21,928 nt of DNA from a virus (taxonomy: Duplodnaviria > Heunggongvirae > Uroviricota > Caudoviricetes), in the IMG/VR virus record IMGVR_UViG_2651869749_000015, one strand, 5' to 3'. Position 1 is the stretch's first letter, and the number at the start of each line of letters is the position of its first letter. A model generated the notes under the pieces. The model searched no databases. It saw only the letters and a program-made list of their open reading frames with translations, and had not been told where the DNA came from. Shown here one piece after another: positions 386 to 20,824 of this stretch. A program made the position numbers and the translations under genes.

Positions 386-1609
386 ATGGCGCTGTCTGAT
401 GCGTGGTTGCGTTCAGTTGTTGGAAAGGAACGTGATAAGGTTTTGGTTAAATCCGATCGTGATGGTCTGTCTGTCAGAGTATCACCGAAAGGTCGCGTAG
501 TGTTCCAATATCGTTATCAATGGGCAGGGAAAGGTGAGCGTCTTGATATCGGAACTTACCCGGCAACTGGATTAAAAGAGGCCAGAGAAGAAGTTATCCG
601 TCTCCGTGGTGAACTCGAGTCAAACCGCAATCCACGATTGGTCAAGCAGGCAGAAAAACGCAAAGCTACTGAAGCCATGACTGTAGAGTCTGTGATCCGT
701 GCTTGGTATGAAGCATATTGTGTAAAAAATAAAAAAGGTGCTGAGCAGATACTCCGCTCATTTGAACTGCACCTGTTCTCTAAAATCGGGAGTATCCCTC
801 ACGATGCAGCTACATTGCATGATTGGTTAGAGGTCTTGGAGCCTCTTAGCACTAAGACTCCAGCAATAGCTGACCGATTGCTAATTAACGCAAAGCAGGC
901 CCATGTCTGGGCGTATAAGAGAAAGCTCATTGAAACTCGCCCGCTGTCGGATATCACAGGTAAAGATATGGATATCCGTAAAGGTCAGAAGAAACGGTTT
1001 CTGACACATGATGAAATTAAAATCCTTTATGCTGCGATCGATGGTTCTCGAATGGTTCCTAAATACCGGGCCTTCATTAAACTATTGTTGCATTTTGGCT
1101 GCCGTAGTTCAGAGCTAATTACCGCTAGGGTGGACGATTTTGATTTCATTAATAAGGTATGGACTGTACCGCCAGAACGACATAAGACAGGGGAGATAAC
1201 AGGCGAACCACTAAAGCGGCCCATTATTGGGCCGGTTGAAGAGCTTATAAAATACGTTATCTCTATGAACAACGGTTCCGATATGCTTTTTACTAAGGAA
1301 GGAAGCAGGGAGCCAGTTGGTCGGACATCATTGCAGTCGCTGCCTTACAATTTAATGCAGTTCGCATGGCGACGTTTGGGGTATCAATTCCCTCATTGGT
1401 CTCTTCATGATTTGAGGCGAACAGCACGAACAAACTTTTCTGATCTTACTGCGCCTCATATTGCAGAAATTATGCTTGGTCATAAGTTGCCAGGGGTATG
1501 GCAGGTTTATGACAAGAGCGATTATCTAGAAGAACAGCGTAAAGCCTACCAGGTATGGTGGGAGAGGGTTGAATTGATAGTTGCTTGTATTAGCTCAGAC
1601 CCCAACTGA
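386..1609 (+). CDS. int: Tyrosine site-specific integrase (P4-like family with N-terminal arm-binding domain)
   Basis: 407 aa ORF. Catalytic signature residues are visible: R in FGCRSSEL, H-x-x-R in HDLRRTART, H in LGHKLPG and Y in VYDKSDY. It sits directly beside the prfC junction. SD-like AGGTGA lies 3 nt upstream of the ATG. Confidence 0.92.
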   Translation: MALSDAWLRSVVGKERDKVLVKSDRDGLSVRVSPKGRVVFQYRYQWAGKGERLDIGTYPATGLKEAREEVIRLRGELESNRNPRLVKQAEKRKATEAMTVESVIRAWYEAYCVKNKKGAEQILRSFELHLFSKIGSIPHDAATLHDWLEVLEPLSTKTPAIADRLLINAKQAHVWAYKRKLIETRPLSDITGKDMDIRKGQKKRFLTHDEIKILYAAIDGSRMVPKYRAFIKLLLHFGCRSSELITARVDDFDFINKVWTVPPERHKTGEITGEPLKRPIIGPVEELIKYVISMNNGSDMLFTKEGSREPVGRTSLQSLPYNLMQFAWRRLGYQFPHWSLHDLRRTARTNFSDLTAPHIAEIMLGHKLPGVWQVYDKSDYLEEQRKAYQVWWERVELIVACISSDPN

Positions 1610-1880
1610 CCGTTTGCATAGCTAGAACGAAATAAAATCTGACTGTCCGTTTTGAGCGACAACTAGACCTCAAAATATCTGTTGGATAATGGGGGTAAAA
1701 TACACTTTAAAAAAATATGCTTAATAAGTAACTTATTTTGTTTAAATTTATGAAACACTCTCTAAATTATCTCTTATAATTTAACATTCTTTCTTGATTA
1801 TATGTGTAAAAATATAGTTAAAAATGTTAACTGAGATGCGTGTGTTATTAATGTGTTGATTTCTAATGTTGTTTTTGTTT

Positions 1881-1908
1881 GCGCCTTGAATGCAAGGCGC
1901 TATTTATC
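1881..1908. terminator. GC-rich hairpin between the convergent 3' ends of int and the cargo operon (possible terminator)
   Basis: GCGCCTT-gaatgc-AAGGCGC (7 bp stem, 6 nt loop) at 1881-1900, followed by TATTTAT on the + strand. The T-run is weak on the minus strand, so strand assignment is uncertain. Confidence 0.3.
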
Positions 1909-2401
1909 AAGATAGTCTATTCAGATCAGTATTAGGTGTGCTTCTTTTTGATGCAAAGATGGATTTGAATCTTTTTGAGTAACTATCAAAAAACCATTTT
2001 GTATAATTACCTTCAATTTCCTCTAATATTGAATACTTCATCTCATGAAGTTCATTTTTATAATCACACTTTTTGCTTAACAAGTCTAAAGGTGTTGATC
2101 TGATAGATGACAACTGTTCATCACATAATAATTTCTTACCAATCCTTTGTGATAAATGAGACAGCTGCATTTCAATTAATGAGACACTGGAGGCTAAAAA
2201 ATTATCCAGCTCTAATTCTTTAGTATCTCTAGAAGAGAGCTTATCTAAAACATTATCAAAAAGAGATTCTATTTGCTGACAGATTTTATCCTTTTGCCTT
2301 GAAATATCATTTCGCTTGAATGCTCTATTATTGAAATAAGACGCAACAAGCCAACCAATTATAGCAATCACAATACTTGTATAATTAACCTCTTCCTGCA
2401 T
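1907..2401 (-). CDS. Small single-pass membrane protein of unknown function (third gene of the cargo operon; candidate effector)
   Basis: ORF with ATG at 2401 (GTG at 2404 one codon upstream). Hydrophobic helix YTSIVIAIIGWLVASYF near the N-terminus, followed by a polar, charged region. Its start overlaps the stop of the upstream gene by 17 nt. Low GC. Confidence 0.6.
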   Translation of the reverse strand: MQEEVNYTSIVIAIIGWLVASYFNNRAFKRNDISRQKDKICQQIESLFDNVLDKLSSRDTKELELDNFLASSVSLIEMQLSHLSQRIGKKLLCDEQLSSIRSTPLDLLSKKCDYKNELHEMKYSILEEIEGNYTKWFFDSYSKRFKSIFASKRSTPNTDLNRLS

Positions 2402-2717
2402 CACTCTCTGCCTTATTCAATCGTTCATCAATCAAGGTCTCAATACTCTTAATATCTTTATGAGTATAAGTTAGTTTTTTCTTAAGTTCGCTTAATGTGT
2501 AGCCTTCTACTCGGATCAAGCCACCAAACGCTTCATCAATAAATGAACGCCCATAACGGTTATATCCAGTCAACTCAACATGAACTAAATCATACTCTTT
2601 GAGAAAGCCTGCCAGATATTTGCGAAAGTTTTCCCCACAGCCTGCCCCATCGTCTGGATAGCGCCCGTAAGGCTTACTGTTGAAGTCTTTGATAACATTG
2701 ATGTTTTTAGTCTTCAT
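2385..2717 (-). CDS. Small STAS-like protein (DUF4325-type, anti-sigma-antagonist-like fold) - putative partner of the adjacent kinase
   Basis: 110 aa. The segment DLVHVELTGYNRYGRSFIDEAFGGLIRVEG matches the pattern I recall for DUF4325/STAS-like proteins (V-x-L-D/E-F/L-x-G-V, then SF-x-DE-x-F-G-x-L). Its ATG overlaps the stop of the upstream ATPase gene (2707-2717). Assignment is from memory, not an HMM hit. Confidence 0.6.
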   Translation of the reverse strand: MKTKNINVIKDFNSKPYGRYPDDGAGCGENFRKYLAGFLKEYDLVHVELTGYNRYGRSFIDEAFGGLIRVEGYTLSELKKKLTYTHKDIKSIETLIDERLNKAESDAGRG

Positions 2718-16994: not shown

Positions 16995-17011
16995 TTTTGT
17001 GGAGAAAGTTG

Positions 17012-17377
17012 ATGCGTGATATTCAAATGGTTCTTGAACGTTGGGGGGCATGGGTGGCAAATAATCACGAGGATGTCACCTGGTCGTCTATTGCTGCAGG
17101 ATTTAAAGGACTAATCCCTTCAAAAGTAAAATCCCGCCCGCAATGTTGTGACGATGACGCGATGATCATTTGTGGATGCATGGCTCGCCTGAAAAAGAAC
17201 AACAGCGATTTGCACGATTTATTAGTGGATTATTATGTAGGTGGTATGACTTTTATGGCGCTTGCCCGTAAACATGGGCGTTCTGATTGCTGGGTTGGGC
17301 GTTTATTGCAAAAGGCTGAAGGTGTAGTTGATGGCATGTTAATGATGTTAGAAATTGAGCTAGAGATGGATCGTTAG
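17012..17377 (+). CDS. Q: Late-gene antitermination protein Q (phage-82/DLP12 QuuD-like family)
   Basis: [36 protein letters not shown]...[16 protein letters not shown] matches the Q-antiterminator family as I recall it. ATG at 17012 with GGAG 8 nt upstream; the six-frame ORF starts at a TTG at 16997. Confidence 0.8.
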
Positions 17378-17419
17378 AAGACCTCTTATTGAGGGGGTAA
17401 TTGAATCAGTTTAATGTGT

Positions 17420-17455
17420 GGGGAGTCGATTTATTCTCCCCATTTTATTTAATTT
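17420..17455 (+). terminator. Intrinsic terminator at the end of the early-right operon, downstream of Q
   Basis: GGGGAG-tcgatttatt-CTCCCC hairpin (17420-17441) followed by ATTTTATTTAATTT. Confidence 0.5.
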
Positions 17456-17457
17456 AT

Positions 17458-17904
17458 TTAAGGTTTTAATTCATCAAGACGTTGTTGGATAGTGTTTTTG
17501 CTTGCGTTGTCTGTTATAGACATTTGTTGTACTTGCCCCATTGCCATTTGAGTTTCCATCCACATATCGGCCCACACTTTTGTATCGTTATTAACTTGAG
17601 CGATAGTAAATCTGACTTTTGATACCGGGGTTGTTGAATAGGCATTGCCGATTAACATTTGTCCAAAAACAGCAGAGCCGCCTTCCAGTTCTTTACCACA
17701 TATAACACTGCTGTTATCCGCGTTGTAAATTATCAACCCTCTACTATTGCAGTAATTCACAAGGGCATCTTTGACTTTATCTTTTGTCGTATTTTGATAA
17801 ACCCCCTCAGGTTTTCCTGATTGAGTTTTCTTTATCAATGGTACGGAAGAAGTACAACCTGAAATGATAGTTGCGCTAAGTAATAGTACAGTCATTTTAT
17901 TCAT
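17458..17904 (-). CDS. Lipoprotein of unknown function (AT-rich moron, opposite strand to flanking operons)
   Basis: 148 aa. Signal peptide with lipobox (MNKMTVLLLSATIISGC). About 35% GC by eye versus ~50% backbone. Sits between Q and the putative late promoter. Confidence 0.7.
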   Translation of the reverse strand: MNKMTVLLLSATIISGCTSSVPLIKKTQSGKPEGVYQNTTKDKVKDALVNYCNSRGLIIYNADNSSVICGKELEGGSAVFGQMLIGNAYSTTPVSKVRFTIAQVNNDTKVWADMWMETQMAMGQVQQMSITDNASKNTIQQRLDELKP

Positions 17905-17969
17905 GTTTCTTATCCATTGTTAAGGGCATACCCACACAATTATTTTTATTGGAGATGAATAATCAACCG

Positions 17970-17997
17970 TTTACAATCGTAAAAAATCAAATATGCT
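17970..17997 (+). promoter_or_regulatory. Candidate late promoter pR'
   Basis: TTTACA (17970-17975), 16 nt, TATGCT (17992-17997), downstream of Q and upstream of the late/lysis genes. Confidence 0.3.
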
Positions 17998-18030
17998 GTT
18001 AAGAGTGGTTACTTCGCCACACAACTTAAA

Positions 18031-18052
18031 CCCGCCGCTGAGCGGTTTTTTT
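18031..18052 (+). terminator. Candidate promoter-proximal terminator (tR'-like), implying a short 6S-like leader transcript
   Basis: CCGCT-G-AGCGG inverted repeat (18035-18045) followed by seven T (18046-18052), about 45 nt downstream of the candidate pR' start. Confidence 0.3.
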
Positions 18053-18150
18053 GTACCTGTAAACCTGGTGCAGTACAGTAAACACGCTGGTGGTCGTGAA
18101 TACTGACTTTTTATCTTGCTGGCTTTTTAGACAAGAGTTATTGGTATGTC

Positions 18151-18378
18151 ATGTTAACCAGAAGGGAAAAAGACATGCTAAAACAGCAAGATATGACAGA
18201 AACCGCCGCCGCAGTCCTTCATTTCTTACCTGCTGACAAGTGGGTAACGCCACGCATGATGACGAGAACTACCGGAGTAAGCGAAGCCCGGTGCCAGTTA
18301 ATACTGACTCAGTTAGTTCTGGCGGGTCTGGCGAAGGATAACGGCGGGTACGGGAATAAATTCAGACGCTGCCAGTAA
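18151..18378 (+). CDS. Hypothetical small protein, first ORF after the late promoter
   Basis: 75 aa ORF; an alternative ATG at 18175 has AGGGA upstream. Possible HTH-like segment VTPRMMTRTTGVSEARCQLILTQLVLAGLA. Confidence 0.4.
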   Translation: MLTRREKDMLKQQDMTETAAAVLHFLPADKWVTPRMMTRTTGVSEARCQLILTQLVLAGLAKDNGGYGNKFRRCQ

Positions 18379-18528
18379 TGGCGGTTTCCTGCTGTGAAAA
18401 TGGGCGGCTGGTGGGTGTTGGTAGCACCTGCCAGCCATTCGCTCATGCTTACTGGTCACAAGCGAACCACGGCCCACTGCTTTAGCGCAAAAGCAGAGTG
18501 AGCCTACCAGAGTTACGCTTACTGATCC

Positions 18529-19581
18529 ATGAAAAATACTGTGAAAATAAACAGTGTTGATTTAATCAACGCTGATTGCCTGCATTTTATTCAGTCCCTG
18601 CCTGATGATTCCATTGACCTGATTGTTACCGATCCGCCGTACTTCAAGGTGAAACCCAACGGCTGGGACAATCAGTGGAAAGGGGACGAAGATTACCTTA
18701 AGTGGCTGGACCACTGTCTGGCCCAGTTCTGGCGGGTGTTAAAACCTGCCGGAAGCCTTTACCTGTTCTGTGGGCATCGCCTGGCATCTGATATTGAGAT
18801 CATGATGCGTGAACGTTTCAACGTGCTTAACCATATCATCTGGGCGAAGCCGTCCGGACGTTGGAATGGGTGTAATAAAGAAAGTCTGCGTGCATATTTT
18901 CCAGCCACAGAGCGCGTTCTGTTTGCTGAACATTACCAGGGGCCATATCGCGGCAAAAGTGACGGCTATGCGGCAAAAGAAAGGGAACTCAAACAGCACA
19001 TAATGGCACCGCTGATTTCGTATTTCAGGGATGCTCGTGCCGAACTGGGTATAACGGCAAAACAAATTGCCGAAGCCACAGGTAAGAAAAATATGGTTTC
19101 CCACTGGTTTGGTGCCAGTCAGTGGCAGTTGCCGAATGAGGCTGACTATCGGAAGTTACAGGCACTGTTTTCCCGTATAGCGGCAGAGAAGTTTCAGGAA
19201 CAACAACTGGAACAACCACACCACCAGCTGGTGGCATCTTATGATTCACTGAATCGCAAATATTCTGAATTGCTGGATGAGTTTAAATCTCTCCGGCGCT
19301 ATTTCTCCGTATCAGTCTCCGTGCCTTATACCGATGTCTGGATGCATAAACCCGTTCAGTTCTACCCGGGTAAACATCCGTGTGAGAAACCTGCGGATAT
19401 GCTCCGGCAAATAATCAATGCCAGTAGTCGACCTGGTGATCTGGTTGCTGATTTTTTTATGGGATCCGGTTCCACAATAAAAGCAGCAATGGCGCTGGGG
19501 CGTCGGGCCTTAGGTGTTGAGCTTGAGTCAGAGCGGTTTAACCAGACAGTGAAAGAGATAAACGAGCTGGTGGGGAAATAA
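18529..19581 (+). CDS. DNA methyltransferase, beta-class N6-adenine/N4-cytosine type (orphan, no restriction enzyme partner seen)
   Basis: 350 aa. Motif IV DPPY (LIVTDPPYF) near the N-terminus and motif I FxGSGS (DFFMGSGSTIKAA) near the C-terminus. Confidence 0.8.
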   Translation: MKNTVKINSVDLINADCLHFIQSLPDDSIDLIVTDPPYFKVKPNGWDNQWKGDEDYLKWLDHCLAQFWRVLKPAGSLYLFCGHRLASDIEIMMRERFNVLNHIIWAKPSGRWNGCNKESLRAYFPATERVLFAEHYQGPYRGKSDGYAAKERELKQHIMAPLISYFRDARAELGITAKQIAEATGKKNMVSHWFGASQWQLPNEADYRKLQALFSRIAAEKFQEQQLEQPHHQLVASYDSLNRKYSELLDEFKSLRRYFSVSVSVPYTDVWMHKPVQFYPGKHPCEKPADMLRQIINASSRPGDLVADFFMGSGSTIKAAMALGRRALGVELESERFNQTVKEINELVGK

Positions 19582-19587
19582 TCTGGT

Positions 19588-19612
19588 GGCCACGTAGGTG
19601 GCCTTTTTATTT
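19588..19612 (+). terminator. Hairpin plus T-run downstream of the methyltransferase gene
   Basis: GGCCAC-gtag-GTGGCC (19588-19603) followed by TTTTTATTT. Confidence 0.45.
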
Positions 19613-19647
19613 CCATTACACAGCACCCGCATCTGCGAGGTGGGGTT

Positions 19648-19863
19648 ATGAAATCCATGGATAAGTTAACAACGGGTGTCGCCTATGGCACCTCAGCAGG
19701 TAGTGCCGGGTACTGGTTTTTACAGTTGCTCGATAAAGTCACGCCCTCACAGTGGGCGGCAATAGGTGTGCTGGGTAGTCTGGTATTTGGCTTGCTGACG
19801 TATCTGACAAACCTTTATTTCAAGATTAAAGAAGATAAGCGTAAGGCTGCGAGAGGTGAATAA
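19648..19863 (+). CDS. S: Class II holin (pinholin, phage-21 S21-like) with dual-start motif
   Basis: 71 aa, [58 protein letters not shown]. Two transmembrane domains, M1-K-S-M4 dual start, basic C-terminus. Confidence 0.85.
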
Positions 19864-20360
19864 TGTCGCCATCATTACGCAAGGCTGTTGCTGCTGCTAT
19901 TGGTGGTGGGGCTGTTGCCATAGCGTCTGTGCTCATCACTGGTCCGAGTGGTGACGATGGCCTGGAAGGTGTCAGCTACATACCATACAAAGATATCGTT
20001 GGCGTATGGACTGTATGCCACGGACACACCGGAAAAGACATCATGCTAGGTAAAACGTATACCGAAGCAGAATGCAAAGCCCTCCTGAATAAAGACCTTG
20101 CCACGGTCGCCAGACAAATTAACCCGTACATCAAAGTCGATATACCGGAAACAACGCGCGGCGCTCTTTACTCGTTCGTCTACAACGTGGGTGCTGGCAA
20201 TTTCAGAACATCGACGCTTCTTCGCAAAATAAACCAGGGCGATATCAAAGGCGCATGTGACCAGCTACGTCGCTGGACATACGCTGGCGGTAAGCAATGG
20301 AAAGGCCTGATGACTCGTCGTGAGATTGAGCGTGAAGTCTGTTTGTGGGGGCAACAATGA
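19863..20360 (+). CDS. R: SAR endolysin (phage-21 R21-like lysozyme with N-terminal signal-anchor-release domain)
   Basis: N-terminal G/A-rich SAR helix [20 protein letters not shown]. Catalytic E-D-T triad region [24 protein letters not shown]. Start overlaps the holin stop (TAATG). Confidence 0.9.
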
Positions 20361-20824
20361 GCAGAGTAACCGCGATTATCTCCGCTCTGGTTATCTGCAT
20401 CATCGTCTGCCTGTCGTGGGCGGTCAATCATTACCGTGATAACGCCATCGCCTACAAAGAACAGCGTGATAAAAAAGTCAGTGAGCTGAAGCAGGCGACC
20501 GCCACCATCGCTGACATGCAGCAGCGTCAGCGTGATGTTGCTGCGATCGATGCAAAATACACGAAGGAGTTAGCCGATGCGAAAACTGAAAATGAAACTC
20601 TGCGCGCTGATGTTGCCGCTGGTCGTAAGCGCCTGCGGGTCAATGCCAGTTGCTCCGCAGCCGTGCGTGAAGCCACCGGACCCACCAGCATGGATAATGC
20701 AACCAGCCCCCGACTGGCAGACACCGCTGAACGGGATTATTTCACCCTCAGAGAACGGTTGATGACGATGCAGAAGCAACTGGAAGGGGCGCAGGAATAT
20801 ATCCGCACCCAGCGCATTAAGTAG
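20357..20824 (+). CDS. Rz: Rz i-spanin
   Basis: [39 protein letters not shown]... with an N-terminal transmembrane helix and coiled-coil, lambda-Rz-like. ATG at 20357 overlaps the endolysin TGA; the six-frame ORF starts at a GTG at 20345. Confidence 0.85.
20577..20762 (+). CDS. Rz1: Rz1 o-spanin lipoprotein, embedded in the +1 frame of Rz
   Basis: 61 aa, [23 protein letters not shown]... with a lipobox and proline-rich [30 protein letters not shown], lambda-Rz1-like. AGGAG SD. Confidence 0.8.

Follow-up and report, generated by a model that had tools for sequence, protein, structure and literature searches.

An AT-rich lipoprotein moron in the Q-to-late-promoter interval of a lambdoid E. coli prophage, with a possible role in superinfection exclusion

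Introduction

What is a lipoprotein gene doing between the antiterminator gene Q and the late promoter of a lambdoid prophage, on the strand opposite to both? The question is raised by the window analyzed here, a stretch of 21,928 nucleotides that represents a lambdoid prophage of E. coli; over the 901 bases surrounding the gene, it shares 99.7% identity with several E. coli chromosomes and 98.7% with phages PhiR40_1 and PhiR55_1. Phage cargo genes of the kind known as morons have hallmarks that were defined for gene 15 of phage HK97: extra DNA, deviant GC content, signals of their own, and placement inside a late operon (PMC3594210). Morons that remodel the cell envelope decide which phages superinfect a lysogen, and they can alter host fitness. 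The family to which the present lipoprotein belongs occurs widely in prophages, both in Enterobacterales and outside that order, and has neither a curated model nor a functional name in the sources examined.

Results

A genuine lipoprotein gene in an AT-rich cassette

The region from Q to the late leader contains the following features:

17012..17377, plus strand: antiterminator gene Q (PF06530, 2e-51; phrog_79; labelled Q in PhiR40_1)
17378..17967, strand not applicable: inserted cassette (moron) of roughly 590 bp, DNA that is not common to phages with a related Q and the same pR'
17418..17457, plus strand: terminator-like hairpin with a T-rich tail (pattern scan and folding)
17458..17904, minus strand: lipoprotein gene, 148 aa, ATG start (six-frame ORF list)
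17904-17857, minus strand: signal peptide of the lipoprotein, aa 1-16
17856-17854, minus strand: predicted lipidated Cys17 of the lipoprotein
17939..17966, minus strand: candidate sigma-70 promoter of the lipoprotein gene, TTGATT-16-AATAAT (consensus scan only)
17970..17997, plus strand: candidate late promoter pR', TTTACA-16-TATGCT (scan; conserved with mEp332)
18004..18052, plus strand: late leader (~45 nt) ending in a tR'-like terminator (scan and fold)

The ORF at 17458..17904 is a genuine gene and not a chance reading frame, because phrog_3152 matches the lipoprotein over its full length (3e-104), its family comprises 823 cluster representatives at E<=1e-3 in an exhaustive profile search, and AlphaFold2 returns a confident model (mean pLDDT 85). 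The label of phrog_3152 is "unknown function". The mature protein has 132 aa and a computed pI of 8.5. With a GC content of 37.8% (GC3 33%), the ORF stands apart from its flanks of 4 kb on either side (~51%) and from the late genes (50%); the insert as a whole, taken as 17378-17990, has 36.2% GC against 51% in the flanks. A preliminary description of this DNA had reported an AT-rich, minus-strand lipoprotein ORF with lipobox ISGC between Q and the late promoter, and these data confirm it.

Searches for a known family were negative. Pfam and NCBIfam, run on the lipoprotein and 75 relatives, gave no model beyond matches to the signal peptide and lipobox; we judged three matches to TrbK, and a UniRef 'VirB7' label, to be lipobox artefacts. 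At E<=0.01, Pfam assigned the lipoprotein to 0 families, Lambda_Bor (PF06291) and TraT included. PADLOC-DB 2.0 returned only PbeC, at a noise-level E = 0.014 (11.9 bits), querying PDB sequences with the family profile yielded nothing above noise, and comparison with BFVD structures produced nothing convincing. The lipoprotein is not related in sequence, or closely in fold, to Cor, Llp, Bor or known defence proteins. Relatives are named "hypothetical protein" or carry the automatic labels 'Lipoprotein' and 'putative lipoprotein virB7' without functional evidence, and a literature search yielded general reviews of morons and superinfection exclusion but no paper on the gene or its family.

The cassette occupies a variable slot between Q and pR'

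Comparison with related phages places the limits of the cassette at the Q stop codon and the -35 hexamer of pR'. The Q genes of mEp332 and other lambdoid phages are 83-86% identical to that of the window at the nucleotide level (83% for mEp332). Homology to mEp332 stops at ~17371, at the end of Q, and restarts at the sequence GTTTAC, ~17968. Q itself could be drawn slightly longer, as its longest ORF begins at a TTG at 16997; the start annotated in PhiR40_1 is the ATG at 17012. Like Q, a DUF968 gene lies upstream of the lipoprotein gene on the plus strand. Between these limits, 17378-17967 is best explained as a moron that was acquired horizontally and entered between Q and the pR' -35: it is extra DNA relative to the collinear phages mEp332 and mEp460_4F5, and its base composition deviates.

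The same slot holds other genes in other phages. In mEp332 it contains the porin gene nmpC, on the minus strand, and in mEp460_4F5 an unrelated 308-aa ORF without a Pfam family (1493-2419, minus strand of the extracted locus, L003). In Stx2c phages, the slot after Q carries an unrelated 141-aa lipoprotein ORF on the plus strand. In one Stx2c-converting phage, LC727876.1 (L004), this ORF (2498-2923, lipobox LVGC) lies between a Q of the PF03589 type and a homologue of tR'; its product belongs to no Pfam family and has no similarity to the window lipoprotein (BLASTP E = 13). The post-Q slot thus seems to collect genes for envelope proteins, namely a porin and two unrelated lipoproteins. The earlier suggestion that the gene is mobile cargo is borne out both by nmpC and other ORFs at the same place in relatives and by the occurrence of the lipoprotein family at no fewer than five other junctions in other prophages.

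The preliminary description had also equated this position with the one where stx sits in Stx phages. Its placement of the gene between Q and the late promoter stands, but the equation with stx does not: the gene order in L004 is Q, the 141-aa lipoprotein ORF, the tR' homologue, a 75-aa ORF, a methylase and stx2cAB, so that stx2cAB lie on the late strand, downstream of pR'/tR' and of the methylase. The stx genes are presumably under Q control. The equivalent junction in the window, between the methylase and the holin (19582-19647), measures 66 bp and is empty. We rejected a role for the lipoprotein gene as Q-dependent late cargo of the stx type, as it lies upstream of pR' and on the opposite strand.

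The true analogue of the lipoprotein slot is the nmpC slot of DLP12 and mEp332. Like the lipoprotein gene, nmpC is a minus-strand envelope gene between a Q of the PF06530 type and a conserved pR', leader and tR'. The cargo differs, since nmpC encodes a 365-aa porin (PF00267) and the window gene a 148-aa lipoprotein of an unrelated, uncurated family. The lc porin gene of phage PA-2 belongs with nmpC among the closest known systems.

Transcription signals around the lipoprotein gene

At the border of Q and the lipoprotein gene, the plus-strand terminator that had been proposed earlier is present. Its hairpin arms, GUGGGGAG and CUCCCCAU, form an 8-bp stem (17418-17425/17436-17443) around a 10-nt loop, and the T-rich tail extends to 17457. 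Folding of the 56 nt from 17405 to 17460 gave -14.3 kcal/mol on the plus strand (z = -3.8) and -11.2 kcal/mol on the minus strand. The minus-strand sequence that follows the 17418-17443 hairpin is ACACAUUAAAC, which has no U-tract, and neither a pattern scan nor folding of the 3' hairpin found a canonical co-oriented terminator after the lipoprotein gene in the window. In the E. coli cassette, the hairpin may act as a weak bidirectional stop, or transcripts may continue antisense into Q.

On the other side of the gene, a candidate late promoter pR' had likewise been postulated, and the TTTACA-16-TATGCT motif at 17970-17997, in a block conserved with mEp332, fits that description. The leader that follows ends in a tR'-like terminator with a hairpin at 18034-18046 and then seven T, to 18052. 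The block of promoter, leader and terminator aligns with mEp332, a DLP12-like phage with a related Q, from ~17968 on; from the transcribed leader on, it also aligns with mEp460_4F5 and the Stx2c phages, and in phages Ayreon and SfV annotated 'terminator' features underlie the match to the leader and tR'. Conservation of this block is what would be expected of pR' and tR'. Rfam and tRNA scans of the region from Q to the late genes gave no match, the leader and tR' included. A 37-aa ORF on the plus strand (17993-18106, 'hypothetical protein' in PhiR40_1) overlaps the pR' -10, the leader and tR', and is probably no gene.

The candidate promoter of the lipoprotein gene has 9/12 consensus matches, lies inside cassette-specific DNA and implies a 5' UTR of ~28 nt. 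It is divergent from pR', back to back, with the two -35 hexamers (17961-17966 and 17970-17975) 3 bp apart; the two promoters might compete for, or share, upstream contacts. Because the lipoprotein gene is upstream of pR' and points away from it, it cannot be Q-dependent.

Late-operon cargo and lysis genes

Downstream of tR', the late strand carries a second set of cargo and a complete lysis cassette:

18151..19581, plus strand: first late-operon cargo after tR', a 75-aa ORF (phrog_331) followed by a DNA methyltransferase
18529-19581, plus strand: N6/N4 DNA methyltransferase
19648..20824, plus strand: complete lysis cassette
19648-19863, plus strand: P21-type holin of the lysis cassette
19863-20360, plus strand: lysozyme of the lysis cassette
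20345-20824, plus strand: Rz of the lysis cassette
20577-20762, plus strand: Rz1, a Pro-rich lipoprotein embedded in Rz

The pair of 75-aa ORF and methylase also precedes stx2cAB in L004, and the 75-aa ORF is annotated 'TrmB family regulator' in phiP27. Two IMG/VR loci (L052 and L059) have the arrangement of Q and lipoprotein gene without the 75-aa ORF and methylase, and the first late gene recognised beyond the lipoprotein gene is the holin; the two cargo cassettes thus assort independently. In a third IMG/VR locus (L061), the distance from Q to the lipoprotein gene exceeds that at every other locus by ~1.8 kb, suggesting that additional DNA has been inserted there.

A predicted outer-membrane lipoprotein with a compact periplasmic domain

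The N-terminus of the lipoprotein, MNKMTVLLLSATIISGC, contains all three parts of a signal peptide. The stretch MNKMTVLLLSATIISG before the cleavage site, with the Cys that follows it, has a single Lys in its n-region, a hydrophobic core of 11 residues and the lipobox I-S-G-C with Cys17; the layout, MNK-MTVLLLSATI-ISGC, agrees with the lipobox pattern [LVI][ASTVI][GAS]C. Cys17 is invariant in 21/21 close homologues and in 75/75 distant relatives, which are aligned family members at 28-48% identity. Across these 75, the lipobox is L[SAT][GAS]C, and an n-region Lys or Arg occurs in 72. The protein is thus a predicted substrate of Sec/Lgt/LspA processing. At the +2 position the lipoprotein has Thr, and the 75 relatives have A, V, S, T, M or G but never Asp. 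Since the residue after the lipidated Cys is not Asp, the protein should be carried by the Lol pathway to the outer membrane and reside in its inner leaflet, the location that we infer from the +2 rule of the Enterobacteriaceae.

In the AlphaFold2 model, helices 41-54, 75-85 and 133-145 pack against a sheet formed by strands 33-36, 58-62, 66-72, 94-104, 107-120 and 125-129. Cys52 and Cys69 are nearly invariant among the 75 relatives and probably form a periplasmic disulfide that stabilizes the domain. Only ~15 residues, with the conserved motif K-x-T-x-S-G-K-P-E-G, separate the lipid anchor from the first strand. The mature protein would therefore be a compact alpha+beta domain of ~115 residues on a tether so short that the domain should sit close beneath the outer membrane. 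Foldseek neighbours include KA1 domains, Flpp3/DUF3568 (a Francisella lipoprotein), the N-terminal domain of BamC, and DUF4468/TBP-like domains. At 6-12% identity and a best E-value of 5e-3, these are generic alpha+beta resemblances at the level of fold, and on the predicted model they imply no shared function.

Distribution of the family and positions of relatives

The E. coli allele is present in 185/5426 complete genomes (3.4%). It is full length in all 185 and at least 99% identical in 176, and the whole segment from Q through the lipoprotein gene to pR' is likewise found in 185 E. coli genomes, with the gene in the Q-to-pR' slot in every one. Near-identical alleles in IMG/VR occupy the same slot in 51/51 loci, antiparallel to Q. 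Carriers are human, animal and food isolates, including O157:H7 and ETEC, and the inducible phages PhiR40_1 and PhiR55_1 bear the gene. Relatives with 40-72% identity come from Salmonella-labelled, Jejubacter, Citrobacter, Morganella, Proteus, Photorhabdus, Xenorhabdus, Haemophilus, Halomonas and other genomes, and Sphingosinicella is also among the genomes with relatives. Nearly all of the examined contexts are prophage or other mobile-element DNA.

The divergent relatives, represented by 25 IMG/VR loci, sit mostly in the tail module:

K-I junction (between K and I): 9 of 25 loci
H-M junction (between H and M): 7 of 25 loci
Between H and J, in another tail type: 3 of 25 loci
M-L junction (between M and L): 2 of 25 loci
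Immediately upstream of H: 1 of 25 loci
H upstream, contig end before the next gene: 1 of 25 loci
Nin-like region: 1 of 25 loci
Unclassified position: 1 of 25 loci

All 23 tail-module copies are co-oriented with the tail genes, and the nin-like copy is co-oriented with its neighbours. In addition, a protein search found one Enterobacterales homologue in a P1-like element. A canonical GC-rich hairpin with a T-run lies at most 70 nt downstream of 26/31 tail- or nin-slot copies, compared to 9.9% of random 160-nt windows drawn from these loci, although several of the 31 loci are near-duplicates and the effective sample is ~15. The window allele, which has no canonical co-oriented terminator, differs in this from those 26 relatives in tail or nin-like slots. 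The family gene is lower in GC than its flanks at 13/16 loci. Taken together, these traits agree with the moron hallmarks described for HK97 gene 15 (PMC3594210).

Some longer relatives (P0100, P0105, P0116, P0142, P0187, P0106 and P0213) bear C-terminal PDZ, TPR (YfiO/BamD-like) or SHOCT domains, a pattern that fits a periplasmic protein-interaction module as judged from these domain matches. One of them (L030) adjoins an integrase gene. In Candidatus Symbiopectobacterium (L021), an N-terminally truncated copy without a signal peptide lies ~750 bp downstream of a 417-aa ORF that, from its sequence alone, we take to be isocitrate dehydrogenase (icd); this copy is probably a decaying prophage remnant.

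Discussion

A working model for the cassette

How might such a cassette work? The lipoprotein gene would presumably be transcribed in the repressed prophage from its own sigma-70 promoter (17966-17939); we infer this promoter use, and expression in the lysogen, from the consensus match and by analogy with other morons. The plus-strand terminator (17418-17457) would stop rightward transcription from the Q side and so shield the lipoprotein gene from convergent antisense reading. Once exported, the lipoprotein may act on a component of the outer membrane or periplasm and block the entry of superinfecting phages. Exclusion is favoured because the gene is phage cargo that seems to keep its own signals, because its product is a predicted outer-membrane lipoprotein, and because most of the divergent relatives cluster among the genes for the tail tip and host recognition. 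Envelope-level exclusion by morons also has precedents in HK97 gp15, encoded in the tail operon, and in Cor, which acts on FhuA (PMC3594210, PMC11436027). By the logic of Cor, Llp and gp15, we tentatively assign the lipoprotein a function in envelope-level exclusion, a reading that we regard as possible but not yet probable. The complete account, from a moron cassette with its own promoter to an outer-membrane lipoprotein and superinfection exclusion, we would put somewhat short of an even chance.

Within this account, the evidence speaks against a block of the receptor that the carrier phage itself uses. Beyond ~residue 1032, the C-terminal part of J in PhiR40_1 does not align with that in L005 or L006, although the lipoproteins are 70-72% identical in this small sample of two carriers. 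Together with the homologue in a P1-like element, the unrelated J C-termini make own-receptor blocking, the strict Cor/Llp mechanism, unlikely. A bolder proposal, which we consider doubtful, is that phrog_3152 and its more than 800 relatives represent an unrecognised class of phage-borne outer-membrane lipoproteins that is tied functionally to the siphovirus tail-tip module. Members of such a class might act just beneath the outer membrane and block tail-tip or tape-measure penetration at a step shared by many phages and independent of the primary receptor, and the E. coli gene, having moved to the Q-to-pR' slot, would have been uncoupled from late transcription. Alternatively, the association with the tail module could simply reflect operon junctions that tolerate insertions.

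Other explanations of the gene

The lipoprotein might instead serve the host. As a fitness or virulence factor of the Bor/Iss/TraT type, it would contribute to serum resistance, adhesion or envelope robustness and not affect phage entry. Lambda Bor is likewise a prophage-encoded outer-membrane lipoprotein (PMC3594210), and the gene is intact in 185/185 genomes of E. coli whose sources are human, animal and food, O157:H7 and ETEC among them. Yet the protein matches no Pfam model, those for Bor and TraT included, and relatives occur in bacteria of insect- or nematode-associated, marine and environmental origin (Photorhabdus, Xenorhabdus, Halomonas, Sphingosinicella), for which serum resistance has no relevance. 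As such a role would also leave the strong link to the tail-tip module unexplained, we think it unlikely. In a different proposal, the lipoprotein is a periplasmic immunity or inhibitor protein that would neutralize an enzyme attacking the envelope. Its target might be a colicin, a T6SS effector, a peptidoglycan hydrolase or lysozyme, or tail-tip protein K (NlpC/P60-JAB) from progeny or incoming phage. Many relatives adjoin the K gene, which encodes NlpC_P60 and Prok-JAB domains, and a small, disulfide-containing protein with a predicted outer-membrane tether would suit the task. However, relatives are also found away from K, at H-M, M-L, nin-like and P1-like positions, the fold matches are generic alpha+beta domains, and the protein resembles neither MliC, PliC and Ivy nor known immunity families (0 Pfam hits), so that we hold this role to be quite improbable.

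The proximity of the lysis cassette raises one further candidate, a core lysis or virion-assembly protein such as an o-spanin, which would not be cargo at all. We rejected the o-spanin identity because the lysis cassette is complete and has its own Pro-rich Rz1 inside Rz, 2.4 kb downstream of the lipoprotein gene and on the other strand. The lipoprotein gene, moreover, lies upstream of pR' in an orientation opposite to that of the late operon, is absent from close relatives with the same Q and pR', and has 0 homologues seen in lysis cassettes; an exported, lipidated protein cannot be a virion component. A core function of this kind thus deserves almost no credence, in line with the earlier view that the gene is not a conserved lysis gene. 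Envelope-level exclusion remains our preferred, if tentative, reading of the function.

Comparison with known phage lipoproteins and morons

The cor and llp genes are located among tail and host-recognition genes, and so are the tail-slot relatives of the lipoprotein gene. Their products, Cor (of phi80, N15, HK022 and T1) and Llp (of T5), are phage-encoded outer-membrane lipoproteins that inactivate FhuA, as is documented for Cor (PMC11436027, PMC3594210), and the window lipoprotein is a predicted phage-encoded outer-membrane protein. It differs from them in several respects: the mature protein is about twice the size of Cor and Llp and has no detectable sequence relation to either, it does not co-vary with the receptor-binding end of J, and the E. 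coli allele lies outside the tail module. The tail-slot relatives share the architecture of HK97 gene 15, a moron in the tail operon that has its own promoter and terminator, is expressed from the prophage and excludes superinfecting phages at the envelope (PMC3594210). At the level of the protein the two part ways, since gp15, a member of the YebO family, is small and located in the inner membrane, and the window lipoprotein is predicted to reside in the outer membrane. In lambda, bor is on the strand opposite to the neighbouring late genes, in another slot, downstream of Rz. Its product is an outer-membrane lipoprotein expressed from the prophage (PMC3594210), as is predicted for the window lipoprotein, but the families differ (no match to PF06291). 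Thus, the lipoprotein encoded between Q and pR' is a further, uncharacterised example of a well-known kind of phage cargo and not a new principle.
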